IMG/VR virus record: IMGVR_UViG_3300017706_002363
Reading direction: 5' to 3' (one strand)
Length of the DNA stretch: 20,000 nucleotides
DNA from: an uncultured virus (IMG/VR IMGVR_UViG_3300017706_002363)
Taxonomy: Duplodnaviria; Heunggongvirae; Uroviricota; Caudoviricetes
The number at the start of each line of letters is the position of its first letter. Position 1 is the stretch's first letter. The position numbers and the translations under genes are program-made. Shown piece after piece: positions 2 through 19,610 of this stretch. The notes under the pieces were generated by a model. That model was not told where the DNA came from. It saw only the letters and a program-made list of their open reading frames with translations, and ran no database searches.

Positions 2-2410
2 TTAGGTGATACTATATGGTACATGGACAATCCAGGATTTGGAAATACATTATATTCAGGAGTACAATTTGGAGTACCATGCTTATCAGTTCCTCCAGTA
101 TATGGCTGTACAGATGATGATTATCAAGAATATGATATATTAGCTACAGTAGATGATAGCTCTTGTGTGAATTTACATATTTACGGCTGTACAGATTCTT
201 CTGCATTTAATTATGACCCATTGGCAACAATCAACGATATAGTTCCTGATTGTCAATATCAATTACTAATTGAAGATGCTGGTGGTGATGGTTGGGGAAA
301 TTCTTATTTAGGAGTTTACCAAAATGGAATTAACTTTGGAACATTTACAATGGGACCAGGTAGTTATCAAGACTCTTTCTTATTAATATTAGATGCTGGA
401 ATTCCTGTTAACATATACTACTTTGAAGTTGGCGGACCTCAGCAGCCACCAGAAGAAGTACAATTTCAAACTTGGCATAATTCATTTAAGCTAACAAACG
501 CTAACGGTGTTGTATTAATGCATGAAGGTACAAATCCTTTTGCTAATAACGGACAAGGTGCTTTACAATCATTCCAATCACCATTTTGGACAGTATATTC
601 AGCTGAACCTTTTTGTGGTGATTATTGTATTCCTACAATATATGGCTGTATGGATTCTTTATCGTTTAACTACGACCCATTAGCCAATACAGACGATGGT
701 TCGTGTATTCCTTATACTCCAGGCTGTATGAATGTATTTGCAATAAATTATAATCCTTTAGCTAATGTAGATGATGGTAGCTGTATTCCTTTTATTAATG
801 GATGTACAGATTCAACAGCAGACAACTATAATTCATTTGCTAACTTTGATGATGGTTCATGTTATTATATTGGCTGTATGGACATAGCTGCATGTAATTA
901 CGACTCAACAGCTACTGTAGATAACGGATGTCAATATCCTCCGCAATATTATGACTGTAATAACATATGTTTATCAGATATTGATGGTGATGGTATTTGT
1001 GATGAACTAGAAATACCTGGCTGTACAAATCCAATAGCTCTTAATTTTGATATAACAGCAACAGATGATGACAGTACTTGTATATTACCAATTTATGGAT
1101 GTACTGACCCAACAGCTTTTAATTATGATGCACTAGCAAACACTGACAACGGCTCTTGTGTTCCTATAATATATGGTTGTACAGACGCTATGTCATTTAA
1201 TTATAATCCGCTAGCTAATACAGAAAATGGTTCATGTATCCCATTTGTTTATGGCTGTATGGATTCAACACAATTCAATTACAATCCACTGGCAAATGCA
1301 GATAATGGAAGTTGTGTACCAGTTATATATGGATGTATAGATTCTACTGCATTAAATTATAATCCACTTGCAAATACAGATGATTTATCTTGTATAGCTT
1401 ATTTATATGGCTGTACAAATCCAATAGCATTAAATTACAATGCATTGGCAAATACTGATGATGGTTCATGTATATTACCTATTCCTGGATGTATGGATGC
1501 CACGGCATTTAATTACGACCCGATGGCCAATGTTGATGATGGAAGTTGCGTACCAGTTATACTTGGTTGTACAGATCCGACTCAATTTAATTATAATTCT
1601 TTAGCTAATACTGATGATGGTTCTTGTATTCCTTATATATACGGTTGTACAGATGCTACTGCTTATAATTATGATGCCAATGCAAATACAGATAATGGAA
1701 GTTGTGAACCATTTATTTATGGATGTACTGATTCTACTCAATTTAATTACGACCCTACAGCAAACACAGATAACGGAAGCTGCACTCCATTTGTATACGG
1801 TTGTACAGATAATTTGGCATTAAACTTTAATCCTTTGGCAAACGCACTAGATAATTCATGTTGTTATATTGGAGGTTGTACAGACATTGCATCTGTAAAT
1901 TATAATCCAAATGCATGCTTTGATGATGGTTCTTGTATAACAGCAGTACCAGGTTGTACAGATGTTGGTGCATACAATTACAATCCAGCTGCAAACGTAT
2001 CTGATTCAACAGCTTGTTTATATGATGCAGGATGCTATGGAGGACCTGGAGTTCCTTATTGGTTAAATGATGGATGCTTTGCATGGGTAATCGATGTTGA
2101 CAATTACTGCTGTACAAATGAATGGGATGCTACATGTCAATCAATGTACGACTACTGCCAATTAGGTTGGCCAACTTCAGTAGATGATATAGCTTCTATG
2201 GGAATAATGGTTTATCCTAATCCTACAGGAGATATGTTAAACATAGATACCAGATTAGATATTGAGATTGAAATATATGATATTATGGGCAAGCTAATGA
2301 CAAAAGAAAGCTCAAAAAGAATAGATTTATCAAATTATCCTAATGGTACATATAACTTGATACTTATATATAATAACAAAAGATTTACTACAAGGGTGAT
2401 AAAACAATGA
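2..2410 (+). CDS. T9SS type A C-terminal-domain protein with Cys/Asp-rich GCTD repeats; probably 5'-truncated by the window edge
   Basis: The frame is open from nt 2 (LGDTIWYM...; first ATG at 23). It has 19 GC(T/M)D..A.NY...A..DDGSC repeats and a DIDGDGICD Ca-binding-like loop. The C-terminus VYPNPTGDMLNI...EIYDIMGK...IDLSNYPNGTYNL...TTRVIKQ matches the Por secretion system CTD (TIGR04183-type). Confidence 0.85.
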   Translation, partial: LGDTIWYMDNPGFGNTLYSGVQFGVPCLSVPPVYGCTDDDYQEYDILATVDDSSCVNLHIYGCTDSSAFNYDPLATINDIVPDCQYQLLIEDAGGDGWGNSYLGVYQNGINFGTFTMGPGSYQDSFLLILDAGIPVNIYYFEVGGPQQPPEEVQFQTWHNSFKLTNANGVVLMHEGTNPFANNGQGALQSFQSPFWTVYSAEPFCGDYCIPTIYGCMDSLSFNYDPLANTDDGSCIPYTPGCMNVFAINYNPLANVDDGSCIPFINGCTDSTADNYNSFANFDDGSCYYIGCMDIAACNYDSTATVDNGCQYPPQYYDCNNICLSDIDGDGICDELEIPGCTNPIALNFDITATDDDSTCILPIYGCTDPTAFNYDALANTDNGSCVPIIYGCTDAMSFNYNPLANTENGSCIPFVYGCMDSTQFNYNPLANADNGSCVPVIYGCIDSTALNYNPLANTDDLSCIAYLYGCTNPIALNYNALANTDDGSCILPIPGCMDATAFNYDPMANVDDGSCVPVILGCTDPTQFNYNSLANTDDGSCIPYIYGCTDATAYNYDANANTDNGSCEPFIYGCTDSTQFNYDPTANTDNGSCTPFVYGCTDNLALNFNPLANALDNSCCYIGGCTDIASVNYNPNACFDDGSCITAVPGCTDVGAYNYNPAANVSDSTACLYDAGCYGGPGVPYWLNDGCFAWVIDVDNYCCTNEWDATCQSMYDYCQLGWPTSVDDIASMGIMVYPNPTGDMLNIDTRLDIEIEIYDIMGKLMTKESSKRIDLSNYPNGTYNLILIYNNKRFTTRVIKQ
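101..2017 (+). repeat. Coding tandem repeat, about 78 bp / 26 aa period, 19 copies (2, then 17 after a spacer domain)
   Basis: Counted by eye in the translation, e.g. YGCTDPTAFNYDALANTDNGSC. The DNA copies are diverged at synonymous positions. Confidence 0.9.
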
Positions 2411-3465
2411 AAAAAATAATAATATTAGCCGCGGTTTTATTAGCGTCATGTGCAGCACCAAAAAAATGCTGTTCTCAGGTAAAAGATTTATTTAAGTTTT
2501 CTACATTTTATGGAGCTGTCAATGGTAATACATCGATATCAGACTTAGATATATACAGCGTTACAGATGGCTTAGAAACAGTTACAGTAGAAACACCATT
2601 TGACTATTCAGTACTTTTTGGTACTAGAAAGATTAGAAGATTTGGATATGAACCAAAAGAGGCATTTAAAAATGGTACAGAAAATTCATTTTCAGATGCA
2701 GCAACAATTGGTTTGTGGGAAAATAAATTAGAATTTCTATTTCAAGCAGAATTTAAAAGACAAGAAGGTGAAGCATATTTTGACCAACGTCACATGCTTA
2801 GATATGTAGATGAAAAATGGTTAGCAAAAGTAGAATATATTGAAGACGGCTTTGCAGATGTAAAGTTTTTTGAATCATCACAAAGATATAGAAAAGAAAT
2901 GGAAAATGGTATATCATTTAATGTTGGTATATCACAAAGAATATCAGAAGCCTATGGATATAATCCTCTTGACGAATGGTTATTATCAAATGGTAATTTA
3001 CACTACACTTATTTAGCATTAGAAGAAGGGTATACAACTCAATTTGATGGACAGGGTGGAGTTGAATATTTCGACCCATCAGGTAATTCTGTAGCAACAA
3101 GCACTGAAGTTTGGGAAGCAGTTGTAATACCAGAAATGCTAGCAAATTATACTGAAAAGAAAAGAGACGAACTACCTGTACAGTGGACACATTCATGGGT
3201 AGCAGGATTCGATTATTACAAATATTCAAAAACAAGCTGGTTACACGCATGGGGTAATATCATGCCATTACATTTTAGTGATGAAGATAATCAGTATAGT
3301 TATTATAATTTTAATAAAGGACAGTGGACAGATTATTCAGGTGGTATTATTTACGGACACTGGTTTAATAAAAATCTAGGATTATTTGTAGAAGGTACAT
3401 ATAATAAATATTGGAACAGAACATGGCACGGATTTAGTGCTGGTATAAATTACAGAGTATTTTAA
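2407..3465 (+). CDS. Putative outer-membrane beta-barrel-like protein with lipoprotein-type signal peptide
   Basis: N-terminus MKKIIILAAVLLASC (lipobox LASC), aromatic-rich alternating strands, C-terminus ...HGFSAGINYRVF ending in Phe (BAM beta-signal-like). ATGA overlap with the upstream gene. Confidence 0.6.
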   Translation: MKKIIILAAVLLASCAAPKKCCSQVKDLFKFSTFYGAVNGNTSISDLDIYSVTDGLETVTVETPFDYSVLFGTRKIRRFGYEPKEAFKNGTENSFSDAATIGLWENKLEFLFQAEFKRQEGEAYFDQRHMLRYVDEKWLAKVEYIEDGFADVKFFESSQRYRKEMENGISFNVGISQRISEAYGYNPLDEWLLSNGNLHYTYLALEEGYTTQFDGQGGVEYFDPSGNSVATSTEVWEAVVIPEMLANYTEKKRDELPVQWTHSWVAGFDYYKYSKTSWLHAWGNIMPLHFSDEDNQYSYYNFNKGQWTDYSGGIIYGHWFNKNLGLFVEGTYNKYWNRTWHGFSAGINYRVF

Positions 3466-3476
3466 GGGAAAAGAAA

Positions 3477-3761
3477 ATGGCAAAAGAATTGAGTGAAAAT
3501 ACAAGCTTTAATGTTAGCATACAAACACTAATAGGAATAGGATTTGCAATAACAACTGTTGTTGGTATGTGGTTTGCATTACAAGCAGATATACAAGAAG
3601 CCAAAGAATTGCCAGTTCCTCCACCTGCAGAAATTACTCGTATGGAATTTGATATGAAAGACCAGTTGGTTCGTCAAACAATTATGAGCACTCAAGAAGA
3701 TGTACAAGAAATAAAAGCTACTCTTGAAAAATTAGAAGATAAAATAGATAGGTTAAGATAA
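3477..3761 (+). CDS. Single-TM protein with C-terminal coiled coil
   Basis: TM segment IQTLIGIGFAITTVVGMWFAL, a PVPPP linker, and heptad-like VQEIKATLEKLEDKIDRL. Confidence 0.7.
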   Translation: MAKELSENTSFNVSIQTLIGIGFAITTVVGMWFALQADIQEAKELPVPPPAEITRMEFDMKDQLVRQTIMSTQEDVQEIKATLEKLEDKIDRLR

Positions 3762-3767
3762 AAAGAT

Positions 3768-4109
3768 ATGAAACTATTAAACACTAATATATGTTTAACA
3801 TCACGCAGATCTTTACTGGTTATAGCAATATTACTAATAAGCACATTGGTAATAGCAGGCGTAATTACAGAAAAGAAAGTTATAATAAAAGATAATAATA
3901 AAGAAGTTTGGATACCATCAGCTGAAGATATTGCTTATCAAGACAGCATGTTTTCTATAGTAGAACAAACACAATCAGATATAGACACAATAAAGGTAGC
4001 AATTGATGATATACTTTGGAAGCTAGAAAAATTAGACTATTCTGATGGAACTTATGATAGCATAAGATATGTGAAAGGTGGCAAACTGGACAAAAAGAGG
4101 AATAAATAA
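3768..4109 (+). CDS. Membrane-anchored or secreted hypothetical protein with short coiled coil
   Basis: Hydrophobic LLVIAILLISTLVIAGVI and helical QTQSDIDTIKVAIDDILWKLEKL. TAATG coupling to the next gene. Confidence 0.65.
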   Translation: MKLLNTNICLTSRRSLLVIAILLISTLVIAGVITEKKVIIKDNNKEVWIPSAEDIAYQDSMFSIVEQTQSDIDTIKVAIDDILWKLEKLDYSDGTYDSIRYVKGGKLDKKRNK

Positions 4110-4489
4110 TGAAAAAAGATTATACATGGATAAAAATGTTTATAGGTTATTTATTAGTACTTTTATTACTTTTTATCTCGAGTCCTGCTAACGGACAGTC
4201 TCCTTGCGGTGGAGACAATTTATGTGTAGTACAATTTAATGCAGGATTTAATGAAGCAAACAAAGTTGCTTGGGTAGAAAAGCTTGGAGATTGTGACACT
4301 AAATTTATAGACATACAAACAGATGCAACAGCTGCTGGTAAATATAAAATAGTTGTTGTACCTACAATTTTAATATTTAATGGTGAAGAAGAGGTTGCTA
4401 GGTTTCAGGCAAACATTATGATGAAAATGGAATCAACGCAAAAAGATATACAAGGAAAAGTAGACGAATTAATTATGGAGTTGTTTTAA
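4109..4489 (+). CDS. Secreted thioredoxin-fold protein lacking CxxC
   Basis: Signal peptide ending ...SSPANG. VVQFNAGFN sits where F.A.WC..C is expected, and KYKIVVVPTILIFNGEEEVARFQ matches the thioredoxin cis-Pro region. Confidence 0.65.
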   Translation: MKKDYTWIKMFIGYLLVLLLLFISSPANGQSPCGGDNLCVVQFNAGFNEANKVAWVEKLGDCDTKFIDIQTDATAAGKYKIVVVPTILIFNGEEEVARFQANIMMKMESTQKDIQGKVDELIMELF

Positions 4490-4722
4490 TGTGGAAAATA
4501 TTTAAAGATAAAAATAATTATAATGAAAAAAACATCGTTGGTTTTGTATCATTTACAGTAATGGTATTATTTGCTGTAGCAGATCTTGTAACAGGTATAT
4601 GGTTTATGGGATATGTTGGTGATGGCAAATTGGAGATTAACGATACTATATTTAACTCATTTGTTATGGTGACATTAGGATGTTTTGGTATTAGTGCATT
4701 TGAAAAAGTAAAGGGAAAGTAA
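4489..4722 (+). CDS. Holin-like 2-TM protein
   Basis: 77 aa with two hydrophobic helices and a basic C-terminus, translationally coupled to the endolysin gene. Confidence 0.55.
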   Translation: MWKIFKDKNNYNEKNIVGFVSFTVMVLFAVADLVTGIWFMGYVGDGKLEINDTIFNSFVMVTLGCFGISAFEKVKGK

Positions 4723-5192
4723 TGGAAAAATTTAGCGAACACGTAAGCTACAAAGAAGGCGTAAAAAGTAACACAGCAGATAGGTTAGGCTTAGACAATA
4801 CTCCTTCTGCAGACCAAAGAAAATGTATGCATGAAATTGCACGAGATGTATTTGAGCCATTAAGAGAATGGGTAGGTGGACCTATAAAAATAAACAGCTT
4901 TTTTAGAGGAGAGCCTGTTAATACGGCAATAGGCGGTTCTAAAAGGTCTCAGCATATGAAAGGTCAAGCTATGGATATAGACGACACATTTGGACATAAA
5001 ACAAATGCTGAAATGTACCATTATATAAAAGATAATTTAGATTACGACCAGTTAATATGGGAGTTTGGTGATAACAAAAATCCTAACTGGGTACATGTTA
5101 GTTATGTAACGCACAGGCCTAACAGAAAAATACTTACAGTTGCTTTTAAGAAAAACGGTAGAACTGCATACGAACACAAGGCACATGCATAA
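4722..5192 (+). CDS. Peptidase M15A (Peptidase_M15_3) Zn peptidase, putative endolysin
   Basis: PIKINSFFR..VN.AIGG, SQHMKGQAMD (SxHxxGxAxD) and WVHVSY motifs. Confidence 0.9.
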   Translation: MEKFSEHVSYKEGVKSNTADRLGLDNTPSADQRKCMHEIARDVFEPLREWVGGPIKINSFFRGEPVNTAIGGSKRSQHMKGQAMDIDDTFGHKTNAEMYHYIKDNLDYDQLIWEFGDNKNPNWVHVSYVTHRPNRKILTVAFKKNGRTAYEHKAHA

Positions 5193-5830
5193 TGATTAAA
5201 TTAAGTAAAATATTAAATGAAGGAAAGGACGAGATAATCTTTGGAAAACCTTCAGAAAAACACGTAAAAAAGATGAATAGATCGTTTGGTGTTTTTGAAG
5301 GATTTAATATGACAAACTTATATAATATACCACCATCACCTAATTCTTCATCAGAAACTTTAGAAGAATTATTTGAACTTGATAAAATAAAACCTAATCC
5401 TGATTTTGTTAGAAAAGCAGATAATATAGCTGAATATTTTATAGAACGAACATCAGATTTAGATATTAAAAAAGATTTAAAAACATTTATAGAATCTGTA
5501 ATATATGATTCAGGTCCTATAATATTAAGATTAAAATATCATTACAATAGACCTAGACCTATACAAGTTGCTAAGATGCAAGGATTAAAATTCCATCATC
5601 AGCCTCTTGAAAGTGCAATGTCTCCATCATATCCAAGTGGACATACAGCACAATCTTATCTACTGGCTTATATGTTAAGTGATATTTATAATAAATACAA
5701 AAACAGATTCTTTAAGATTGCAGAAGAGATATCGATTAGTAGAAATGTTGCTCGACAACACTTTATTTCTGATTCTGAATTTGGTAAGAAAATTGGACAC
5801 GAATTGTGGAGACATTATGAAACTAAATGA
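5192..5830 (+). CDS. Soluble PAP2/haloperoxidase-superfamily phosphatase with N-terminal MIKLSKILNE tag
   Basis: All three motifs are present: KYHYNRPRP (Kx6RP), PSGH and SRNVARQHFISD (SRx5Hx3D). No TM helices. Confidence 0.88.
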   Translation: MIKLSKILNEGKDEIIFGKPSEKHVKKMNRSFGVFEGFNMTNLYNIPPSPNSSSETLEELFELDKIKPNPDFVRKADNIAEYFIERTSDLDIKKDLKTFIESVIYDSGPIILRLKYHYNRPRPIQVAKMQGLKFHHQPLESAMSPSYPSGHTAQSYLLAYMLSDIYNKYKNRFFKIAEEISISRNVARQHFISDSEFGKKIGHELWRHYETK

Positions 5831-6377
5831 TATATTAAATGAAAAGAAATCTTCTCCTTATGGAGAGATTATGCAAAAGCTAGATAAAGGCTTGAAACAA
5901 GCTATTAAATCTGGTGGAGTACCTCAGCGATATGCAAAGGACTATGTAAAGTCTTTAGAAAGAATTGCAAATAAAAATTCTAAAAATTTCTTTAAAGACT
6001 ATGGAAAATTTACTGCAGATGATTTTGAAGAAGATGTAATATATAATATGCAAAATGAAGAGTACTCTGTAAAAACTGAAGACCATGACTGCTTTGCTGA
6101 ATGGTTAGTTGAAAAACAAAGCCAAATTACAGAAGCAGAATATCAAGGACGTACTGTAAAATTAAATAAGCCTATGCAGGGTGATGTTAGCAAGTTTAAA
6201 GTATATGTTAATGGACCTAAAGGAAAAGTTGTAAAAGTTAACTTTGGTGCTAAAGGTTCAGAAAATAGAATTAAAAAGAGCGACCCTGCAAGACGTAAGT
6301 CTTTTAGAGCTAGACACAATTGTGATAATCCAGGGCCAAAACATAAAGCAAGATACTGGTCTTGTAGAAAGTGGTAA
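5817..6377 (+). CDS. Tagged modular phage protein (MKLNDILNE) with basic C-terminal domain (VNFG...RRKSFRARHNC...ARYWSC)
   Basis: Start revised from 5679 to ATG 5817 (GGAG at 5808-5811, tag motif, short overlap with the PAP2 stop). The C-terminal domain is recalled as a recurrent viral hypothetical domain. Confidence 0.75.
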   Translation: MKLNDILNEKKSSPYGEIMQKLDKGLKQAIKSGGVPQRYAKDYVKSLERIANKNSKNFFKDYGKFTADDFEEDVIYNMQNEEYSVKTEDHDCFAEWLVEKQSQITEAEYQGRTVKLNKPMQGDVSKFKVYVNGPKGKVVKVNFGAKGSENRIKKSDPARRKSFRARHNCDNPGPKHKARYWSCRKW

Positions 6378-6387
6378 GGAGAATAAA

Positions 6388-7011
6388 ATGAAATTAAATG
6401 ATATATTAAATGAATCTAGAGAATTTGTAATTATCGACCCTAGAGGTAATGCAAGACCTGTAGGTTCTAAAATGCAAGGTGCTATGTATCTTAAAAAGAT
6501 GGGCGGAGCTAAAAGAGGCTATCACATGGTGTTGAAGAAAAATGCTTTGAAGGCTAGAAGAGCTATTGAAAAAAACGGTGGTAATTCTACAAACTCTAAA
6601 ATACAAAATATTATGTTTGACTTAATGTACGAAGGTAAAGTTAATGAAGCTAAACTAAAAATATCTGGACCTGCTTACGATTTTTGGGATGAGAGAGAAG
6701 TCCAAAGAAAATTAAGAGATGTTAAGATAAAGATAGTTGGAGATATTGGTGGTGTTCTGACAATTAAAGGTAACGATAAAGAACTACAAAAAGTTAAAGA
6801 CATATTAGGTTTAAAAGGTGCAAAAGAATCAGTTAATGAGGCATACGTAGAGTCAATGGACTATCCAGTACTTAAAAAGGCATTGGACACTATCGTTGAT
6901 AAATGGAGCGATTGGAAAAAAGGTCCTATGACAGAACCAAGTGATATAAAACCTGCTCAAAAAGAATTAATGAATTTTGTTAGTTCATATCTTAAGAAAA
7001 ATATTAAGTAA
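6388..7011 (+). CDS. Tagged modular hypothetical protein (MKLNDILNE)
   Basis: Start revised from 6244 to ATG 6388, after TAAGGAG. Internal linkers EGKVNEA and KESVNEA. Confidence 0.75.
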   Translation: MKLNDILNESREFVIIDPRGNARPVGSKMQGAMYLKKMGGAKRGYHMVLKKNALKARRAIEKNGGNSTNSKIQNIMFDLMYEGKVNEAKLKISGPAYDFWDEREVQRKLRDVKIKIVGDIGGVLTIKGNDKELQKVKDILGLKGAKESVNEAYVESMDYPVLKKALDTIVDKWSDWKKGPMTEPSDIKPAQKELMNFVSSYLKKNIK

Positions 7012-7400
7012 TGGAAAAATATATATACAGAGCAAAGTTGGAGAGAGTTGTAGATGGTGACACTATTGATGCTCTTATTGATGTTGGTTTTGACATTTGG
7101 ATTAAGAAAAGGATTCGCTATATGGGTATCGACACTTGGGAATCTCGTACAAGAGATTTGGAAGAAAAGAAAAAAGGTCTTGCTGCTAAAGAAAGAAATA
7201 AAGAATTACTTGAAAAAGTTAGCAAAGACTCAGGATACTTTAGATTAAAATCTCATGGTGTAGGCAAATACGGAAGAGTGCTGGGAGAGATATTTATACA
7301 AGATACTGATGGTAATTCAATAAACATTAACGAGCAGTTAAAGTTAGAAGGCCATGCATATGAATATCACGGCGGTAAAAAACAAATATTTAAGGGATAA
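7011..7400 (+). CDS. Thermonuclease (SNase-like) family nuclease
   Basis: RVVDGDTID, RIRYMGIDTWE and GKYGRVLG motifs. Confidence 0.9.
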   Translation: MEKYIYRAKLERVVDGDTIDALIDVGFDIWIKKRIRYMGIDTWESRTRDLEEKKKGLAAKERNKELLEKVSKDSGYFRLKSHGVGKYGRVLGEIFIQDTDGNSININEQLKLEGHAYEYHGGKKQIFKG

Positions 7401-7402
7401 TT

Positions 7403-7819
7403 ATGAAATTAACAGATATAATCGATGAAATGCAAGCAGTAAATAAAAAGACTGGTAAAGATATTACAAAGCATTTGATAGCATATTTAGAAAAGAAAAT
7501 ATCTAAAGAAGAATTTGAAAAGCTAACAGGGCTTAAGAAAGATAAAATTAAAGTATCAGAAGCTACAAATGTTTGGAAAATTTTTGATATGAAGCAGAGA
7601 TTGTATGGCGACATAATGGATATTGAAATGGATATGAAAACCATTACCAAAGACTTAGGACAGCTTCATAAAGATATGGAACAAGAGGCTGAACCAAGTG
7701 GTGGTAAAGTTGCTGATAAATATGGAAAGCAGATAGACAAGCTTGAAAAAGAATATAAAAAGAAAAAGGCAGAGTTTAAAAAACTTATGGCTAAATTAGA
7801 TAAACTGGAGCAATACTAA
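7403..7819 (+). CDS. Tagged helical/coiled-coil hypothetical protein (MKLTDIIDE)
   Basis: Tag variant, internal VSEA linker, and a DMEQEAEPSGGKVADKYG helical hairpin followed by a coiled coil. Confidence 0.75.
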   Translation: MKLTDIIDEMQAVNKKTGKDITKHLIAYLEKKISKEEFEKLTGLKKDKIKVSEATNVWKIFDMKQRLYGDIMDIEMDMKTITKDLGQLHKDMEQEAEPSGGKVADKYGKQIDKLEKEYKKKKAEFKKLMAKLDKLEQY

Positions 7820-7992
7820 TGATTAATTGGATAAACGGATTTAAAGCAGGGAATAAAAAACAGAAATATAGTTTAACTTTTAGACTAGGTACGTTTACAG
7901 TACTTGAAATTAAAGCATGTTTACTTTGCGAAGCAAACTGCACATCTAAAAAATTTAGACTTATGGTGCTTAATTTAGGATTCGAAATATAA
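7819..7992 (+). CDS. 57-aa beta-rich hypothetical protein (not in ORF track)
   Basis: MINWINGFKAGNKKQKYSLTFRLGTFTVLEIKACLLCEANCTSKKFRLMVLNLGFEI. TAATG overlap with the upstream stop, and GGAG upstream. Confidence 0.65.
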   Translation: MINWINGFKAGNKKQKYSLTFRLGTFTVLEIKACLLCEANCTSKKFRLMVLNLGFEI

Positions 7993-8093
7993 CAAAATTG
8001 GTTAAAAAACCTTAATAATATATAGGAATAATATATAAAAGGTTTATAAGACACGGCGAAATCCATGTCTAACAAAGTAAAAGAAGTAACGAT

Positions 8094-8816
8094 ATGGCAA
8101 AATTAAATAAGAAAGATGTTGCATATACATTAGCAATAAACTATTCAGGTAATACAAAACCTAAAATTACTAAGTTCAATAAAAAGAACATGGTAGTATA
8201 CTATGGATATAAAGTAAATCCAGATGATGTAATTAAATCTTTAAAGCAGTTGGAGCCTTCGTTAAAAATTAAGCACAAGGCTTGGAATTCTATCTCATCA
8301 GGAGGTGGAACTCATACATTTTTATTTGAAGCAGCAACACCTGAGGATGACCCAGAATACTTTAAAGGATTAAGTAAAGACGATAAAGAAGAAAGAGAAA
8401 AAGTTATCGCAAAGAGAAGTAAGATGGATGACGATGACCCTGATGCATATAAAGATTTTAAAAGTGATAAAGGAGTAAAAACCAAAGTGTCAAAACATAC
8501 AAATAAATTCAAGCAAATGTATGGTGAATCCGGCTGGAAAACAATAAAAGAAGTATACAAAATGTCTAAAGGTCTTAATGAAATGAGTGCTGCTGTAAAA
8601 AAAGGCCTCAGAACTAAAGCAGAGAAATCTGGTATGCCTTTTGGAATATTAAAGCAAGTATTCAATAGAGGTATGGCTGCATGGAAAACAGGCCACAGAC
8701 CAGGTGCATCACAACAGCAGTGGGGATATGCACGAGTAAATTCATTTACAACGAAAAGTCCTGGTACTTGGGGTAAGGCAGATAAAGACTTGGCTAAAAA
8801 AGTAAGAGGCAAATAA
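8094..8816 (+). CDS. Modular viral protein with DUF5824-like C-terminal domain
   Basis: KAEKSGMPFGILKQVFNRGMAAWKTGHRPGASQQQWGYARVNSF is recalled as the DUF5824-type motif of large DNA viruses. Family name is from memory. Confidence 0.7.
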   Translation: MAKLNKKDVAYTLAINYSGNTKPKITKFNKKNMVVYYGYKVNPDDVIKSLKQLEPSLKIKHKAWNSISSGGGTHTFLFEAATPEDDPEYFKGLSKDDKEEREKVIAKRSKMDDDDPDAYKDFKSDKGVKTKVSKHTNKFKQMYGESGWKTIKEVYKMSKGLNEMSAAVKKGLRTKAEKSGMPFGILKQVFNRGMAAWKTGHRPGASQQQWGYARVNSFTTKSPGTWGKADKDLAKKVRGK

Positions 8817-8817
8817 A

Positions 8818-9156
8818 ATGGTAAAATTAAAGGACATATTAAGAGAAGGTATTGAATTTCAAGCTATCTTAGTAAAAGATGCGACAGTAAAATATAATAC
8901 TCGTCCAGCTGGCGGTATTCCTGGTGTAGGAACACAAATGGCTGGTAAAAGCCATGCAAAAGTTCCTAAAGGTACATTCTTAATCGGATTGCCAGGTGGT
9001 TTATTCGCAGTTAATCTTAAAAACAAATTTGCTTTTCAGTTAACAAGTGGTAGAGACAAATGGTTAGATGCTCAAGACAAGTTAAAAAATAGTGATTTAG
9101 GTGGAACAAATATGGCTCCTGATTATAATCAGTGGCGAAAATACTTAAAAAAGTAA
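8818..9156 (+). CDS. Tagged hypothetical protein (MVKLKDILRE)
   Basis: Tag motif; fills the gene space 1 nt after the upstream stop. Confidence 0.75.
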   Translation: MVKLKDILREGIEFQAILVKDATVKYNTRPAGGIPGVGTQMAGKSHAKVPKGTFLIGLPGGLFAVNLKNKFAFQLTSGRDKWLDAQDKLKNSDLGGTNMAPDYNQWRKYLKK

Positions 9157-9168
9157 AAGGGAAAAATA

Positions 9169-9513
9169 ATGGCAAAATTTAATGATAGAAAATGGCGAAG
9201 AGAACTAATAGAACTTAGTGAAGGTGCTAGTCCTAAAGAAGGTGCAAGAAGACTTATTGATAAATTAGTACAATCAAAACTTCTTGATAAAAAGAACGAA
9301 AAGAAAGCAATAGATTTACTTACTTATTTAATGGCTAGAGGAATACATGAAGGCAAATTAAATGAAGGTGTAAAAGAAAACATGCTTAAAGCAATTCCTG
9401 ATTCTTATAATTATGACAAGTTGGCAAAAGACGTTGCTGATATTATCAAAGAAGAGTATGGTTCTCATAATGTAAAACCTTTTATTAAATCTATTACAAA
9501 ATATTTAAAATGA
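9169..9513 (+). CDS. Modular helical hypothetical protein with internal LxE-G linkers
   Basis: ELIELSEG and GIHEGKLNEG linkers. ATGA overlap with the next gene. Confidence 0.7.
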   Translation: MAKFNDRKWRRELIELSEGASPKEGARRLIDKLVQSKLLDKKNEKKAIDLLTYLMARGIHEGKLNEGVKENMLKAIPDSYNYDKLAKDVADIIKEEYGSHNVKPFIKSITKYLK

Positions 9514-9908
9514 TTAAGCTAAAGGATATACTATCAGAGGGATTGTCGACAAAAGATATACAATCGATAGTTAATGAGGTTTATCCTAAAGTAATAAAAT
9601 ATTTTGGTAAAAAAGGTTCTGTACCTAAAATAGAAATACACAACAGCATATATGCAAGATTAAGTGGAGTTGAAGGTATGGTTGGCGAAGCCAATCCTCA
9701 TGCAGAATATGACCACGAAAGAAATAAAATATATTTATATAAACCTAAGATGACAAACAGAGAACAAGTCATTAGGTCTATAATTCATGAATATACACAC
9801 TCAAAACAAGACATAAGCAAAATAGAAAAATACAGAAAGTTAGGATACAAAAAGAATCCTTTTGAAGTTGAAGCTCACAATGCAGAAAAACATTGGAGAA
9901 AATTTTAA
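9510..9908 (+). CDS. Zincin-type HExxH metallopeptidase with N-terminal MIKLKDILSE tag
   Basis: SIIHEYTHSKQ plus a downstream NPFEVEA (third-ligand Glu), preceded by the AEYD....KIYL strand pair. Confidence 0.8.
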   Translation: MIKLKDILSEGLSTKDIQSIVNEVYPKVIKYFGKKGSVPKIEIHNSIYARLSGVEGMVGEANPHAEYDHERNKIYLYKPKMTNREQVIRSIIHEYTHSKQDISKIEKYRKLGYKKNPFEVEAHNAEKHWRKF

Positions 9909-9934
9909 TATGTGTAAGATTTTTATTATATTAG
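9904..9934 (+). promoter_or_regulatory. Putative Bacteroidota-type promoter (TTTA-19 bp-TATATTAG)
   Basis: Same spacing as three other copies and as the TTTG-N19-21-TAnnTTTG consensus. Ends 4 nt before ATG 9939. Confidence 0.5.
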
Positions 9935-9938
9935 TATT

Positions 9939-10469
9939 ATGATTAGACTAAAAGACATATTGACAGAAGGCAAAAAAGGAATGCTTAGTATATTTGATTT
10001 TGATGATACTATAGTAAAATCAGATTCATGGGTATATGTTAAAAAACCTGACGGTACTGAATATAAACTTGACGCTGCAGAGTTTGCACTTCATAAAGGA
10101 CTTAAAGCAGGTGAACAATATGATTTTAGAGATTTTGATAGAAAATTAAGAAGTCCTAGACTTATAAAGAAAAATGCAGATTTGCTTCGCAAGCAATTAA
10201 AAAAAGGCGGACGAAAGGTTACGATACTTACAGCAAGAAGACTTGGAGCACCAATAGGTCATTTTTTTAGAACAATAGGAATTGACCCTTATGTAGTTGC
10301 ACTTGGAGATGGAAATCCTCAAAAGAAGGCAGACTATATTGAACGTGAAATCAAGAAAGGTTACGATCCGATATACTTTATGGACGACAGCCCTAAAAAT
10401 ATCAAAGCAGTCGACAAACTTAAGGTTAAATATCCTCATATAACGATAGTAACATCACTGGTTAAATAG
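9939..10469 (+). CDS. HAD-superfamily phosphatase with N-terminal MIRLKDILTE tag
   Basis: Motif I FDFDDT, motif II ILTAR, motif III K (PQKK), motif IV FMDDSPKN. Confidence 0.88.
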   Translation: MIRLKDILTEGKKGMLSIFDFDDTIVKSDSWVYVKKPDGTEYKLDAAEFALHKGLKAGEQYDFRDFDRKLRSPRLIKKNADLLRKQLKKGGRKVTILTARRLGAPIGHFFRTIGIDPYVVALGDGNPQKKADYIEREIKKGYDPIYFMDDSPKNIKAVDKLKVKYPHITIVTSLVK

Positions 10470-10913: not shown

Positions 10914-11611
10914 TACATTCTAATTTACAAGGAGTACCAGGACTAGGCTGTCAGTCGCCAGCAATTACATCTATACTTTTTGTAACTGCTGCAAATGCCG
11001 TATCGTTAGATGCTTCAGGTGCAGGTTCATATAATGCAGATAACAAAAGCTTTATAGAAGACAAGAAGATAAGATGTACATCAGAAGGAGTGTTAAAAAA
11101 GTTTACTCAAATTCATCAAGACGATGGAGTATCTCTTCCTTCTGCAAATGCAAAGAATACTTCTACTCCTAATATAGATGTTAAAAGACCTAATTGTACA
11201 TGTGCAAAGCTTACAGACTTAACAATAAAACACCAACAGACGTCAGCAACACCATCCAATGTATACAGTATTACATTTGCAGATGGTTACAGTATTAAAC
11301 TAGGAAAATATATATTTTTGCTTAAGATAGGAGCAAGCGGTTTAGAGTTTTCAAAAGTAGAAGACTTAACAACAAATGATTATATTGCAAAATGTGCAAC
11401 ACCAGGACGTACAGATGAAATCTCTGCAGGCTGTGTAAAAATAACAAGTATATCATCAAACGCTTCTGTTGATGCAGGAGAATATTTTGTAACTGAGCCA
11501 GAAACAGACTGGCCTCAAAGCCAATTTCCAACTAGCGAAATAAGATGTTCATTAATGTTGGAAAATGGTGTATATATATTTACAATACCTGATGGAGGTG
11601 AATACGCATAA
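10904..11611 (+). CDS. Protein with degenerate Hint-like domain
   Basis: SFIEDKKIRCTSEGVLKKFTQIHQDDGV (block A-like), VYSITFADG, FSKVEDLTTNDYI, VKITSI and MLENGVYI. No TxxH or terminal HN. Confidence 0.55.
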   Translation: MGLIHSNLQGVPGLGCQSPAITSILFVTAANAVSLDASGAGSYNADNKSFIEDKKIRCTSEGVLKKFTQIHQDDGVSLPSANAKNTSTPNIDVKRPNCTCAKLTDLTIKHQQTSATPSNVYSITFADGYSIKLGKYIFLLKIGASGLEFSKVEDLTTNDYIAKCATPGRTDEISAGCVKITSISSNASVDAGEYFVTEPETDWPQSQFPTSEIRCSLMLENGVYIFTIPDGGEYA

Positions 11612-14193
11612 TGGCAACTCCTGGAGTAAATATAGCTAATGGTAATCCTGTAGTTCCTGAAGGAGAATTCTGGCACCATCCTGTACACATACATAGACAC
11701 AGATATCAAGGTGTGTATAATAATGGAGATGATGCTTTTTATGGTTCAGTAATATCTGCAGACACTAAGTTTTGGAGAAGAGGCTCAGGTACAGGTTTTT
11801 TACAAACATTTGCAGAGATAAATAGTGGCATTGCAATAAATTCAAATTTCCAAGCTCCTAGTATATCTATTCCTGATGCTGGTACATGTGCAACACACTC
11901 ATACCATACAAAAAGAATATATGATGTTTCAGTAAATTTTGATGAGGTCGATTCAATAAACTTTTTATCACCTTCTAATAAAGACGCTTATTTTTTATGG
12001 AAAGAGTTTCCTGAAACATCACCTCTTACTACATCTTCAATGTTTCGGTATGTAGGTGGAATACTTACAAAGTTTTACAATGACTTTAACTGGTTTGATT
12101 TTCGTACAGGAAGTAGTGGGCACCCTCAATATCATTTAGGATTTAATCATGGAGATTCTAAAGGTATGATTTTCACAACAGCTTCTAGTTTAAATAATAT
12201 AAACTATTGGAATGACCCTGCATCTACAGGAGATTACACAGAGCAGTTTGTGCAAGGGCTAAATAGAAACTATGGCTTTTGGTTAACAGCTAGTAAAATG
12301 GGTACAGGGATAATCGATATAACGTCTAGCTTTGGACATGTAAATGAATACTATCACCCAGATCAGCCTTATGGAGCTTTAGAAGGTTTAGATGACATAT
12401 ACATAGCATCAATACAGAGAGACTCAGTACCAACATTTGCAGCACCAGCTCCAGGTTTTGGATTTACAATTCAAAGGCATTATAGTTCAAGTATATTTAC
12501 AGACATTAGAGGCTGGGATATAACAGGTTCACAAGGAGGCCATACATTCTATCACGATGCATTTACTCAAAACACTGTAATGTGGAAAGGAGTAAGTCAA
12601 GATGATAGAATTGCAACTGCACCATTCAGTCATTCTTTATTAGGTTTAGAGTTTAGTAGAGAGTATGGCGACGCTTGGACAGGAAGCGACACTACACGAT
12701 ATTTTAATAATGTTGAAATTGAAAACAGTCCTGAAAGAAGAATAAGAGGAACGCTTTCGGGTAAATACGATTATTGGTTTAAATTTGCAGGTACTCAACC
12801 TGTTATGGTTAAACGACCTACTTGTCAGTGCACAGAATTTATAGACTTTTTTAACGTACCTTATCAATCTGTAAAAAGTATATCGAAACCTTTGCGTAGC
12901 CTTGATTATTATAGGCTTACATTTACAGACGGATATACATTTACAGCAGGAGGATTGTTAAGACTTTTTACATTTAATCCTTTACATATATCTGCTACTC
13001 AATCACTTGTAGGTTATCCTAACTCATCACAATGGCCTCACAGTCTTACTACTAGAACACCTGTAGAATTATTCAATAGTTCTAGTGACTTTATAAACGC
13101 AAACGATGTAGGCTTTATTAAGTGTGCAGATTTAATACCTGGAACAACACAACTTTCAGGTTATACAACACTGGCATCAATAGAAAAATTTGATGTACCT
13201 GAGCTTTCAAGTAGCCTAAGACCATATTATTGGAATGAAACGCTAGGTGAAAAACACTTTGACATTAATGCGACATCTTCATGTCCCACAAGTAGTACTA
13301 CACATCACGACTTTTTTCCTCATATGACAAGAGTTCATACAAACATGGGAGAATTTACATCTTCTGCAGAAAAAAGTCATATAGATGGTGTGATAATGAT
13401 AGAAAACGGATTGTATGTTGGATTTGAATCACATAGACATATTACATTCGATACTATATCTGCAGTTGATAACACAGGATGCTCAGGAGCTCCAAATGGA
13501 ACAATAGATGTTACAGCGAATGGAGGTATTGCACCTTTAACATATTCTTGGAGCAATGGAGATACAGGAAATTCAATAACAGGACTAAGTGAAGGATTTT
13601 ATACAGGTTCTGTAACAGATGCTAATGGGTATTTTAACTATGTAATAGTAGAAGTTGAATCATCAGCACCTGCAGTGTCTGCTTCAATGGCAATAAGAGG
13701 TCCTCATACAAATGCAGACCCATCAGTACCTTATTTCAGACATAATATTGCAGTGTCAATGTCACCTCAATCAGGATGTCCACCGTTTACTTATTCTTAT
13801 GAAATGGGGTATAACAGTGGTCCTAATCCACCTCTTTGGGAAGCTTTATGTACTCAGTCTTACGATGATTATTTAATTAATGGTAATACATGTGGTAATA
13901 ATAGTCCGTTTAACTACCCTCAAAGTGACCTATGGACTGGTAGTTTAAATAATTATGCCACAAAGAATGTTATCGATGGTATAAGACTTCATACAAATCC
14001 TTTTTCAAATATGATTAGAGTTACTGTTACAGATTCTAATGCTAATACTTATCAAGTTTCTGGTGCATGGGCAATCGCTGGAGCTGGTGGTGCAGATGTA
14101 TTTGCTAATGCTGCAAATGTAAATGGCTGTACTCAATCGACCGCTGCAAATTACAACTTCTTTGCCAATATTGATGATGGTTCTTGTATATAA
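11611..14193 (+). CDS. Large Ser/Thr-rich protein: split Hint-like domain, SprB repeat and C-terminal GCTD repeat; possibly virion-associated or adhesin-like
   Basis: Motifs paralogous to the upstream gene at 12811-13420. SprB-type repeat GCSGAPNGTIDVTANGGIAPLTYSWSNG...GLSEGFYTGSVTDANG at about 13465-13630. Ends in GCTQSTAANYNFFANIDDGSCI. Confidence 0.7.
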   Translation: MATPGVNIANGNPVVPEGEFWHHPVHIHRHRYQGVYNNGDDAFYGSVISADTKFWRRGSGTGFLQTFAEINSGIAINSNFQAPSISIPDAGTCATHSYHTKRIYDVSVNFDEVDSINFLSPSNKDAYFLWKEFPETSPLTTSSMFRYVGGILTKFYNDFNWFDFRTGSSGHPQYHLGFNHGDSKGMIFTTASSLNNINYWNDPASTGDYTEQFVQGLNRNYGFWLTASKMGTGIIDITSSFGHVNEYYHPDQPYGALEGLDDIYIASIQRDSVPTFAAPAPGFGFTIQRHYSSSIFTDIRGWDITGSQGGHTFYHDAFTQNTVMWKGVSQDDRIATAPFSHSLLGLEFSREYGDAWTGSDTTRYFNNVEIENSPERRIRGTLSGKYDYWFKFAGTQPVMVKRPTCQCTEFIDFFNVPYQSVKSISKPLRSLDYYRLTFTDGYTFTAGGLLRLFTFNPLHISATQSLVGYPNSSQWPHSLTTRTPVELFNSSSDFINANDVGFIKCADLIPGTTQLSGYTTLASIEKFDVPELSSSLRPYYWNETLGEKHFDINATSSCPTSSTTHHDFFPHMTRVHTNMGEFTSSAEKSHIDGVIMIENGLYVGFESHRHITFDTISAVDNTGCSGAPNGTIDVTANGGIAPLTYSWSNGDTGNSITGLSEGFYTGSVTDANGYFNYVIVEVESSAPAVSASMAIRGPHTNADPSVPYFRHNIAVSMSPQSGCPPFTYSYEMGYNSGPNPPLWEALCTQSYDDYLINGNTCGNNSPFNYPQSDLWTGSLNNYATKNVIDGIRLHTNPFSNMIRVTVTDSNANTYQVSGAWAIAGAGGADVFANAANVNGCTQSTAANYNFFANIDDGSCI

Positions 14194-15017: not shown

Positions 15018-16952
15018 ATGAACACATTCAACAACTCTTCTTTCTGGCTCGACAACGACCTCGACTATGACGTATTAACAGGCGAAAAAATCAAAGCTGG
15101 TAAAGACTATGTAAAAATGGCGGCAACAAAAAGAGCCATTGCAAACTTTGTAAGCATTGTTACTGGTAAATCTATTCCTGTTACATACAGCACCAAAGAT
15201 GAAAGCTTTACCGATGGTCAACAAGTTGTACTATCTGGTAACATTAAAGAAAAAGACTTCGACCCTACTGTTGGTTTGGCACTTCACGAAGGTTCACATT
15301 GTATTCTTACAGACTTCGATGTTCTTAAAATTCTAATGGATTCTACGGTTTCAATTCCACAAGATATTATGAACATGGTAAAAAATAAATATTTTTCAGG
15401 TGCAGACGAAGACGAACTATGGTCAACTCACAATTACATTCGTAATCAAGTAAAATCATTACTAAACTATGTAGAAGACAGACGTATTGATAATTTTATT
15501 TATCAATCTGCACCAGGTTATCAAGGTTATTACCAAGCAATGTACAACAAATACTTTAATTCAAAAATTGTTGACAAAGGTCTACAATCATCAGAAATGC
15601 GTGATTTGGATTGGCAATCTTATATGTTTAGGATTATAAACATAACAAATCAAAACCGTGACCTAAATGCTTTACCTGGCCTTAAAGATATATGGAAGTT
15701 ATTGGACTTAGGAAATATATCAAGAATACCAGATACATTACAATCATTAAACCTTGCATTTGAAATATTCAAGATTGTTGAATCTCATCTACCAACACCT
15801 TCTCAACAAGAAAAACAAAAAGAAAAAGAAGGTGATAGCGAAGATGACAAAAAAGGTGGTAATAAAAAACAAGGAAGCAATCCATTAAATCAAAGCCAAC
15901 AAAATCAGTTACATAAACAGATTGGAAAACAAATGGAATTTAATGATGACAACGTTAAAAAATCTACAGTTTCAAAATCAGATAAGAAAAAGGTTCAAGC
16001 AGTACAGGAATCTGGTTCAGAAATAAAAACTGTTGGTGCTGGTATGGCAAAAAACTATTACACACAAACAGGCCAAGGTACAAAATGTTTGGTTGTAAAA
16101 ACAGTTACTAAAAATCTTATTGAATCAAGGTTATATAATACACTATCAGCTAGACATTGGTTCCTAGAAGAAAACCAAGAAGCAATCAACAAAGGTATCG
16201 CACTAGGTACTGTACTTGGTAAAAAGCTACAGGTAAGAGATAATTCTAAATCATTAACATTCAACAGATTACGCAAAGGAAAGGTTGACAGCAGAATGAT
16301 ATCGGCACTAGGATTTGGTAGTGAAAACGTATTTAAACAAATTCACATTGACCAATTTAATCCTGCTACTGTTCACATCTCAATAGATGCTTCAGGTTCT
16401 ATGTCTGGTGACAAATGGTTAAAGACTCAAACATCAGCAGTAGCTATAGCTAAGGCAGCTTCAATGATTCAAAACCTTGATGTTATAATATCATACAGAA
16501 CTACAGAAGACCAAGGAAATTCACAGATACCTGCAATCTTTATTGCTTATGATTCTCGTAAAGATAAAATCAAGAAAATACAAACATTGTTTAAACACAT
16601 CTGCTGTCCTGGTACAACACCAGAAGGATTGTGCTTTGAAGCTATTCAAAAGGAAATCATAGATGGCGGCAATGGAAATGACAGTTACTTTATTAACTTC
16701 AGCGACGGCGAACCATACTTTGAAAATAAAGATATCACATACTACGGACAGCCTGCATCAAAACATACAAAAAAGCAGGTTGATAATATGAAAGCTAGAG
16801 GTATCAAGGTGCTAAGCTTCTTTATTACTGGAGCTTACTCAAGCGATATGGAAAACTTCAAAACGATGTACGGTAACGATGCAGCATCAATTAATGTTAC
16901 CAAGCTTACAGAATTAACAAGAACACTTAACAAAAGATTTATAACTAAATAA
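15018..16952 (+). CDS. HExxH metallopeptidase-like plus VWA domain protein (CobT-like; usual partner of a MoxR AAA+ ATPase)
   Basis: ALHEGSH and LLNYVEDRRID in the N-terminal part, a charged Q/K/E linker, then MIDAS residues IDASGSM, GTTPEG and NFSDGEP. Confidence 0.85.
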   Translation: MNTFNNSSFWLDNDLDYDVLTGEKIKAGKDYVKMAATKRAIANFVSIVTGKSIPVTYSTKDESFTDGQQVVLSGNIKEKDFDPTVGLALHEGSHCILTDFDVLKILMDSTVSIPQDIMNMVKNKYFSGADEDELWSTHNYIRNQVKSLLNYVEDRRIDNFIYQSAPGYQGYYQAMYNKYFNSKIVDKGLQSSEMRDLDWQSYMFRIINITNQNRDLNALPGLKDIWKLLDLGNISRIPDTLQSLNLAFEIFKIVESHLPTPSQQEKQKEKEGDSEDDKKGGNKKQGSNPLNQSQQNQLHKQIGKQMEFNDDNVKKSTVSKSDKKKVQAVQESGSEIKTVGAGMAKNYYTQTGQGTKCLVVKTVTKNLIESRLYNTLSARHWFLEENQEAINKGIALGTVLGKKLQVRDNSKSLTFNRLRKGKVDSRMISALGFGSENVFKQIHIDQFNPATVHISIDASGSMSGDKWLKTQTSAVAIAKAASMIQNLDVIISYRTTEDQGNSQIPAIFIAYDSRKDKIKKIQTLFKHICCPGTTPEGLCFEAIQKEIIDGGNGNDSYFINFSDGEPYFENKDITYYGQPASKHTKKQVDNMKARGIKVLSFFITGAYSSDMENFKTMYGNDAASINVTKLTELTRTLNKRFITK

Positions 16953-19052: not shown

Positions 19053-19192
19053 GAAAATGGATAAACAAAAATAGAAGAGGTATAGAACTGTTAATCATAA
19101 TAGGACTATTGATAAGTGGAGAATGGCAAATAGCTTTAATCTTTGGTATACTATGGGGATTAGACGAAGAGGAGTACAATGGATTTAATTAA
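19049..19192 (+). CDS. 47-aa hydrophobic protein (not in ORF track)
   Basis: MRKWINKNRRGIELLIIIGLLISGEWQIALIFGILWGLDEEEYNGFN, ATGA-coupled. Confidence 0.55.
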   Translation: MRKWINKNRRGIELLIIIGLLISGEWQIALIFGILWGLDEEEYNGFN

Positions 19193-19610
19193 TACACACC
19201 CAGTAAAAAAGTCAGACCTCGGGTTCCACGGCAATCTTTTCGGGGGCAAATTGCTGGCTTGGCTCGATGCTTCGGCGGCGGGGTACGCTATGCAAATATG
19301 TGATACACCGAGAATGGTTACCGTATCGATAGATAAGTGTGAATTCAAGAGACCGGCCAGAGAAGGCCAACTTGTAAAAATATACGGAGAAGTAAATCGA
19401 TTCGGCACGACATCGGTAGAGCTACATCTACAAGCGAGATCGCATAATGTTTATAATGGTAGACAACATATAGTACTTGATACAAATATATGTTTTGTGC
19501 GTATAGATGAAATGGGAGAAGCTATTCCGATTAGCGATAGAGTTAAAGACAAGTATATGCCTAAAAATAAAAAGCAAAAGACATTTAAGGAGATACGTAA
19601 AAATGGTTAA
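19179..19610 (+). CDS. Acyl-CoA thioesterase, hotdog fold (YciA-like)
   Basis: DLGFHGNLFGGKLLAWLD, VTVSIDKCEFKRP, GTTSV and FVRIDEMGEAIPI motifs. GAGGAG RBS. Confidence 0.9.
   Translation: MDLINTHPVKKSDLGFHGNLFGGKLLAWLDASAAGYAMQICDTPRMVTVSIDKCEFKRPAREGQLVKIYGEVNRFGTTSVELHLQARSHNVYNGRQHIVLDTNICFVRIDEMGEAIPISDRVKDKYMPKNKKQKTFKEIRKNG

Follow-up and report, generated by a model that had tools for sequence, protein, structure and literature searches.

What does a phage gain from a protein addressed to a secretion system of its host, and what do the genes encoded right after it contribute? These questions are raised by a stretch of 20,000 nucleotides, hereafter the window, from an uncultured virus of the Caudoviricetes (IMG/VR record IMGVR_UViG_3300017706_002363). 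[quoted passage not shown] A preliminary description of this DNA held that the phage displays the cargo on the infected cell, with the barrel as anchor or shuttle and the other envelope proteins as periplasmic helpers. We found that the genes of this module behave as two pairs, one made of the barrel and a Cys-rich part of the cargo, the other of TMCC and the thioredoxin. The reading we prefer, with slightly less than even confidence, is that the cargo is a fibre exported by the host T9SS and anchored by the phage barrel, whereas the inner pair has its role in lysis. The features in question are the following, with counts from our main synteny sample, the 80 top-ranking viral loci found with the barrel.

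2..2410, + strand: cargo, predicted T9SS substrate; reading frame 5'-open at the window edge
104..2014, + strand: 19 two-Cys repeats in the cargo, GCxDxxAxNYxPxAxxDDGSC type, mostly with a 26-aa period
2003..2176, + strand: phage-specific Cys module of the cargo (C-x-WV..D.YCC...WD..C), candidate barrel-binding part
2210..2407, + strand: T9SS type A C-terminal domain (CTD) of the cargo, by PF18962, TIGR04183 and fold match
2407..3465, + strand: outer-membrane beta-barrel of an unnamed family, by AlphaFold2 model and fold matches
3477..3761, + strand: TMCC, single-TM inner-membrane protein (TM at residues 17-35 by hydropathy) with a Pro linker and a C-terminal coiled coil
3768..4109, + strand: accessory TM/coiled-coil protein with one hydrophobic segment, 9/80 loci
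4109..4489, + strand: thioredoxin fold, predicted as exported, that lacks CxxC but retains the cis-Pro motif, 74/80 loci
4489..4722, + strand: two-TM holin-like protein, by topology and position only, 21/80 loci
4722..5192, + strand: M15 peptidase endolysin (PF08291, E 5.6e-14; phrog_894 endolysin, E 7.5e-25), 14/80 loci

The CTD of the cargo has the identity and fold of a T9SS type A substrate domain, from which we predict that the cargo is secreted. The last 66 aa match PF18962 with 43.4 bits (cut-off 27) and TIGR04183 with 42.1 bits (cut-off 23), and their model has the beta-sandwich fold of substrate CTDs whose structures were determined within the translocon (8GLK, Z score 11.2, root-mean-square deviation 1.5, 69 residues aligned; 8GLJ, Z 10.5). 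The intact type A CTD of the preliminary description thus stands, as do its 19 two-Cys repeats, which we counted by the signature GC[TMI][DN], spaced mostly by 26 residues. Repeats of this kind are common to the cargo and to host surface proteins; their Asp-rich motifs are the one hint that the cargo may bind Ca. The window cargo aligns to residues 376-1151 of a related protein (in locus L003) at 68%, so ~375 aa of it are missing here, and its own N-terminus and signal peptide lie outside the window. Among 112 5'-complete cargo relatives, 108 start like a signal peptide by a crude rule of charge and hydropathy (not SignalP; some loci overlap), including a hydrophobic leader in the two closest ones (L001 and L003). 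Other cargoes end in a short tail of ~40 aa (L351-L356; cargo tails e.g. L014:14645-14779), missed by TIGR04183 and PF18962, which is likely a minimal T9SS signal outside the two type A models tested. It is a host tail: 16 of the 21 marine Flavobacteriales genomes examined contain it, with 3-46 matches each.

The window appears viral. Scans of 21 window proteins against family libraries returned PHROG matches in several cases and nothing of a housekeeping kind. Among records with barrel loci, T4-type gp23 is present in 3 of 5 tested (including L001, one of the loci closest to the window) and a crAss-type portal in 2 of 5; the source of the window is probably a T4-like marine phage. A contig from another sequencing run spans window positions 1625-4701 with 28 differences. 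Hence the gene junctions there are natural and the region is not chimeric, a condition on which the preliminary description had made its claims depend. The cargo (its C-terminal third, mainly repeats) finds matches in 36 of 41 genomes around one marine Flavobacteriales metagenome-assembled genome (MAG). Because these genomes share the cargo repeats and the short tails, marine Flavobacteriales are the candidate host group, and SprA (20/21) and PorV (21/21, found by NF033709) are present in genomes of this group. T9SS-bearing Flavobacteriales are therefore the likely hosts, in line with the host type first proposed.

The gene that follows the cargo encodes a barrel, as the preliminary description supposed. 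The AlphaFold2 model (mean pLDDT 76.6) has 12 amphipathic strands, as read from secondary structure, behind a leader, and ends in an aromatic C-terminal strand; close relatives end in F in 69/79 cases and have Y at position -4 in 78/79. A large helical loop or insertion (aa 181-258) is extracellular by the inferred topology, and a conserved segment with pLDDT <50 (aa 79-105) is on the inferred periplasmic side. The best fold matches are 12-strand barrels of the autotransporter, KdgM/NanC and FapF kinds, headed by the EstA autotransporter (Z 13.3, deviation 4.1, 186 residues aligned), KdgM (12.9, 3.8, 164) and NanC (12.7, 4.3, 181). Yet identity to such barrels is 6-12%, they differ by the large helical insertion, the phage protein has no passenger domain, and a common fold shows no function. 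The family counts 2731 homologs. The window barrel fits no named family in Pfam-, NCBIfam- or PHROG-type scans, and an ESM Atlas search with it returned generic barrel look-alikes only. It has a LASC lipobox and a terminal Phe, as described earlier, but the lipobox occurs in 23/76 near relatives and 25/264 unique barrels, and the same leader sits on the cargo protein in L044. The lipobox is thus no defining trait of the family.

The preliminary description took this barrel for a PorV/SprF-like shuttle. That the barrel is a PorV-, PorQ- or SprF-like protein in direct contact with the CTD, and the thioredoxin a chaperone of the cargo, now seems very unlikely. T9SS barrel models of NCBIfam match none of 35 diverse barrel members at E up to 1. 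The PorV-type fold has 14 strands, against 12 in our model (with aa 79-105 at low confidence), and PorV (6h3i_F) comes 42nd in the fold list, with Z 7.2 (deviation 5.4, 166 residues aligned) against 13.3 at the top. The likely hosts own PorV already, and the thioredoxin occurs without cargo. A CTD-binding shuttle would suit the observation that cargo abuts barrel in 60/114 loci, and cognate barrels are proposed to hold PorZ and type B cargo (PMC10202324). In the window, cargo and barrel reading frames overlap by ATGA, as the translational coupling claimed at first implies. Yet this coupling is neither conserved nor specific, since adjacency is found in those 60 loci only (the cargo lies downstream in 41/114) and other window genes also overlap or nearly abut.

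Co-divergence separates the part of the cargo that goes with the barrel from the part that does not. In partial rank correlations over 101 non-redundant four-gene loci (of 121), barrel and Cys module reach 0.56, thioredoxin and TMCC 0.44, and the other four pairs at most 0.10 (0.10 and 0.03 for the barrel with the two members of the inner pair). After length equalising, the values for the two pairs are 0.42 and 0.37. In triplets where the kinship of the barrel and that of the inner pair are in conflict, the Cys module goes with the barrel at 85 of the 90 focal loci. It does so at 37/37 focal loci when the cargo lies beyond the inner pair. The barrel windows that track it are the N-terminus and the predicted outer loops, which lie at aa 42-65, 181-258 and 292-308. 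Over the same 72 loci, the choice between barrel and inner pair is 63:3 for the Cys module and 36:29 for the type A CTD, and full and short cargo tails alternate on barrels that are 74-96% identical. A barrel that binds the CTD fits poorly with both observations. As for the holin-like gene, it sides with TMCC and thioredoxin by 15:3 (34 loci). The module genes thus behave as two pairs.

The Cys module is the most conserved part of the cargo: its pattern is found in 98/114 cargo C-termini, with a mean identity of 61% against 40% for the CTD. Sequence searches mark it as phage-specific, unlike the repeats and the short tail, for it occurs in one of 41 cellular genomes, there on a phage-like contig. 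Its model shows three short helices with modest pLDDT; it had no fold match in a joint search with the CTD, whose matches filled the list, and no separate search was made. We also folded the barrel (residues 25-352) with the last 135 residues of the cargo, which include Cys module and CTD. The complex scored 0.60, 0.59 and 0.60 against 0.00 in all three controls, with contact agreement of at least 91% and partner pLDDT of at least 70. The mark so reached is also reached by 116/157 solved and 2/215 mismatched pairs, 18 of the solved and both mismatches being at or below 0.60. This modelling lends weak support to the view that the barrel and the cargo C-terminus belong together. No interface was reported, and the result is also compatible with a CTD-binding shuttle because the CTD was included. 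The loci that supplied the alignments for these folds are those of the co-divergence test.

Our results suggest the following scheme. The cargo would be exported by Sec and the host T9SS, through the host's own SprA and PorV, with the CTD serving as an address label only, copied from host proteins and freely exchanged. The 12-strand phage barrel would then hold the cargo by its Cys module, through the extracellular loops, so that the infected cell would display a variable, host-like, disulfide-rich fibre. The purpose of the display would most likely be receptor masking, a decoy against competing phages, or attachment to particles. At the inner membrane, the single-TM coiled-coil protein and the redox-dead thioredoxin would form a unit with the holin-like gene, most likely tuning lysis.

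Several observations weigh against this scheme. A neighbouring nuclease sides with the barrel just as the Cys module does (10:1 each, 26 loci), so vertical descent with a mobile inner pair may explain part of the barrel-cargo tracking; the M15 endolysin also leans to the barrel (17:8, 39 loci). Within the BMTC gene order the equalised partials are tied (0.36 vs 0.34), triplets and pairwise distances are not phylogenetically independent, and the faster divergence of the CTD, given above, weakens its tracking signal. The complex score could have been raised by memory of solved PorV-CTD complexes, again with no interface reported. In the P0147 clade, barrel and inner pair persist although such a cargo is missing (present in 0/33 well-covered loci, meaning 18 kb or more), and the clade whose TMCC bears an MshEN motif also lacks T9SS cargo. 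A lone 404-aa cellular barrel (L363:9379-10593, in G069:C35) exists, with a decayed second piece at G069:C25. Finally, contigs from RNA libraries cover short pieces of the module only and show no transcription of it.

The cellular copy deserves a closer look. The barrel is present in two of 301 Flavobacteriales genomes, once on a phage-like contig and once as this lone copy amid housekeeping genes, which rules out a "phage-only barrel" as an absolute. Searches of GTDB gave no match with a single sequence, and six loci with an alignment, in MAGs of unrelated taxa; five of the six show a phage-type cassette and are probably binned phage contigs. A search of 50,697 annotated phage records gave no match to the barrel, to the window thioredoxin or to one from a small phage, and five weak ones to the cargo, in its repeats. 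A promoter scan stayed at chance level (43 vs 45.3).

What stands beside the barrel varies between clades. A cargo-like gene is present in 64/80 loci, and cargo with repeats and CTD in 31/31 and 28/28 well-covered loci, two sets with some contigs in common, of the clade to which the window belongs. In the P0132 clade, the barrel has a different neighbour in 76/80 loci, a secreted protein rich in Cys, with an LDLa-like head (PF00057 below cut-off), a Thr/Val/Glu-rich stalk and a short tail of another kind. The T9SS status of that tail (L173:12539-13456; L357-L359) is uncertain, because its likeness to type A is weak (2/75 at E<0.01, no NCBIfam match) and it is present in 5/101 cellular genomes, where it ends single proteins. 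The P0143 clade has a Cys-rich lipoprotein in 5/6. In P0147, a type A CTD rises above cut-off in one of five whole records, on an unrelated Cys-free protein. In some phages of that clade (L264:4303-9972, L262, L330), a further group of exported proteins is encoded immediately upstream of the barrel; it includes a 245-aa Cys-free protein with a type A CTD. Cargo-less clades often have a lipoprotein of ~190-200 aa between barrel and TMCC (L254:9649-10221, L372:9348-9950), with no family match, and several loci have small genes resembling outer-membrane proteins (weak PF13505) near the cassette (L013:11510-11938, L022:11687-12106).

The strict linkage of barrel and cargo in the window's clade also bears on the idea that the cargo decorates the virion or is released into the medium, the barrel being an unrelated porin moron. 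Similar repeats, at a weak E of 2e-5, occur in a gene of Synechococcus phage S-CAM3 that is called "virion structural protein" in one of four records, and in fold the barrel comes closest to porins for small solutes and to autotransporter barrels. However, a signal peptide and a CTD, kept across relatives, would remove the cargo from the cytoplasm, where virions assemble, which disfavours it as a virion part. Together with the linkage, this makes the idea hardly credible.

The inner pair has its own history. TMCC is found in 73/80 loci and is directly followed by the thioredoxin in 224/247. Its periplasmic part has ~58 residues, and an ESM Atlas search gave no usable family for it. The thioredoxin profile matches thioredoxins of the PDB (E 2.7e-9) with the WCGPC motif missing; P85 and T86 are invariant, and a C..C pair occurs in three of 264 members, never at the active-site position. 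The absence of CxxC from this predicted exported thioredoxin is thus confirmed, and suggests that the protein is redox-dead. The preliminary description spoke of two TM/coiled-coil proteins. Each has one hydrophobic segment, but the one at 3768-4109 is accessory; it is weakly TMCC-like, the TMCC profile giving E 9e-6 to 0.012 against 10 members. Putative TMCC-thioredoxin fusions (P0348, P0358, P0338, P0351) were rejected, as they are clusters of one to three sequences and likely read-through or frameshift calls.

In other lineages, TMCC carries an N-terminal MshEN motif for cyclic di-GMP (c-di-GMP). The one protein scanned (L167:11099-11776) matches NF053729 with 46.4 bits (cut-off 38), and a pattern finds the motif in 20/54 loci; the window TMCC is not of this kind. 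These fusions support the orientation of TMCC, which is inferred from hydropathy only. Relatives with tandem MshEN-TMCC (P0368-P0449; L364-L396) belong to phages without T9SS cargo in the cassette. Five records have TMCC and thioredoxin without barrel, three of them complete (28.6, 36.9 and 59.7 kb); the barrel profile is silent in all five (0/5), although it gave E 1e-137 to 1e-24 on matches in cellular genomes. In the complete small phages (L397:9971-11203, L409:9977-11127, L416:9998-11148), the pair and a second TMCC-like gene lie after tail-region genes and before small membrane reading frames. The pair is thus found without cargo and without barrel, and it tracks the holin-like gene, so the role of periplasmic helper or chaperone of the cargo given to it at first is not supported.

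Lysis genes are the recurrent company of the pair. In 40/68, 34/34 and 12/25 loci, the thioredoxin has an endolysin-like gene no more than 6 kb away, at a median distance of 340-680 nt (without shuffled control). Of the holin and endolysin named by the preliminary description, the endolysin is backed by its family matches, whereas the holin has no family match in general scans (nor a PHROG match for five members) and is known from topology and position only.

Could barrel, TMCC and thioredoxin be a non-canonical device for outer-membrane disruption that replaces spanins, with the cargo as a passenger moron of one lineage? The P0147 loci keep the trio without cargo (barrel and TMCC 33/33, thioredoxin 32/33), with lysis genes close by, and TMCC fits the topology of an i-spanin by hydropathy, with a single N-terminal TM and periplasmic helices. 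Lambda Rz/Rz1 (Kongari et al. 2018, PMC6139136) likewise has a single-TM inner-membrane coiled coil beside lysis genes. But the Rz/Rz1 pair includes a lipoprotein, and we found no conserved adjacent outer-membrane lipoprotein (o-spanin) in the module, where the constant neighbour of TMCC is a soluble thioredoxin fold and few barrels have a lipobox (embedded alternative-frame lipoproteins were outside the search). Of the 44 TMCC members scanned, a single one comes near an Rz family (E 0.027). Moreover, the periplasmic part of TMCC is short, the inner pair exists in complete phages without barrel, it co-diverges poorly with the barrel, and all well-covered loci of the window's clade have cargo. 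We consider a spanin-replacing trio unlikely.

Alternatively, the four proteins (surface fibre, barrel, thioredoxin as periplasmic adaptor and TMCC in the inner membrane) might together be a sensing chain across the envelope, through which contact or superinfection is signalled to the lysis clock, similar to the lysis inhibition of T4 but without homology. One product is addressed to each envelope layer, the order of TMCC and thioredoxin is nearly constant, the holin-like gene tracks this pair, some lineages have a cytoplasmic c-di-GMP motif on TMCC, and the barrel has a conserved segment on its inferred periplasmic side. In T4, the periplasmic antiholin RI is reported to bind the holin T (PMC11413866, PMC8385771), and there too a membrane protein and a soluble exported partner are tied to lysis genes. 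However, family scans turned up no homology to T or RI; the likeness is an analogy only, with a module whose holin is known from topology alone. Recombination between the two pairs, and their separate occurrence, speak against a tight complex of all four proteins. We doubt that such a chain exists, and hold to the anchored fibre with a separate inner pair that acts at lysis.

The rest of the window holds ordinary accessory genes with family matches, namely

5192-5830: PAP2 phosphatase
15018-16952: CobT-like vWA protein
19179-19610: 4HBT thioesterase

It also holds a series of short reading frames at 5192-10469, each beginning with an IKLxDIL-like motif. Frames of this type sit between cargo and barrel in L003 and L088, and they come and go, since 6638-6831 and 8811-9162 are absent in two other runs. 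At 11611-14193, an 860-aa protein has an SprB repeat that exceeds the PF13573 cut-off, matches Hoc weakly and carries the cargo-type two-Cys repeat once, at its C-terminus. No signal peptide was seen; it is possibly a virion fibre.

Type A cargo in phages has been published before. It was described for "Cryophage" (Bellas et al. 2020, PMC7468147), and genes with T9SS sorting domains for crAss-BACON phages (PMC6949934). As in the window, those phage genes have a type A CTD, vary between relatives and were proposed to use the host T9SS. Their products differ, being an endoglucanase, a GH39 or PA14 protein or a BACON protein, and the passages that present them mention no cognate barrel, inner-membrane protein or thioredoxin. 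The module with its own barrel and inner pair, as predicted here, is what adds to these reports. Surface retention by a cognate, often co-encoded barrel has been proposed for PorZ-PorQ, PorU-PorV and type B CTD with PorP/SprF (PMC10202324). Unlike those, the phage pair is encoded by a virus, its cargo is type A, and its barrel belongs to no such family, has a 12-strand model and tracks a module ahead of the CTD. Our search of the literature, which did not extend to supplements (these may list such genes), turned up no paper on either the module or MshEN fusions encoded by phages.

One may go further and imagine a widespread trans-envelope system common to T4-like, crAss-like and small tailed marine phages, in which the barrel, of a new 12-strand kind, holds a sensor or decoy fibre, exported by the T9SS, at its Cys module and is coupled, through the redox-dead thioredoxin, to a lysis timer in the inner membrane that reads host c-di-GMP in some lineages. 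We put this forward as a speculation, and an improbable one.

If the barrel does anchor the cargo, lytic-type ocean phages would rebuild the surface of infected cells through an anchor of their own that holds T9SS substrates and sidesteps the attachment complex of the host. This would be a new mode of retention for type A cargo and possibly a display tool for Bacteroidota. The large barrel family spans unrelated phage groups, as shown by the gp23 and crAss-type portal records, and the module is common in ocean phages. The inner pair and its c-di-GMP fusions, for their part, offer a tangible candidate for the control of lysis in phages where annotation of the lysis genes is poor.

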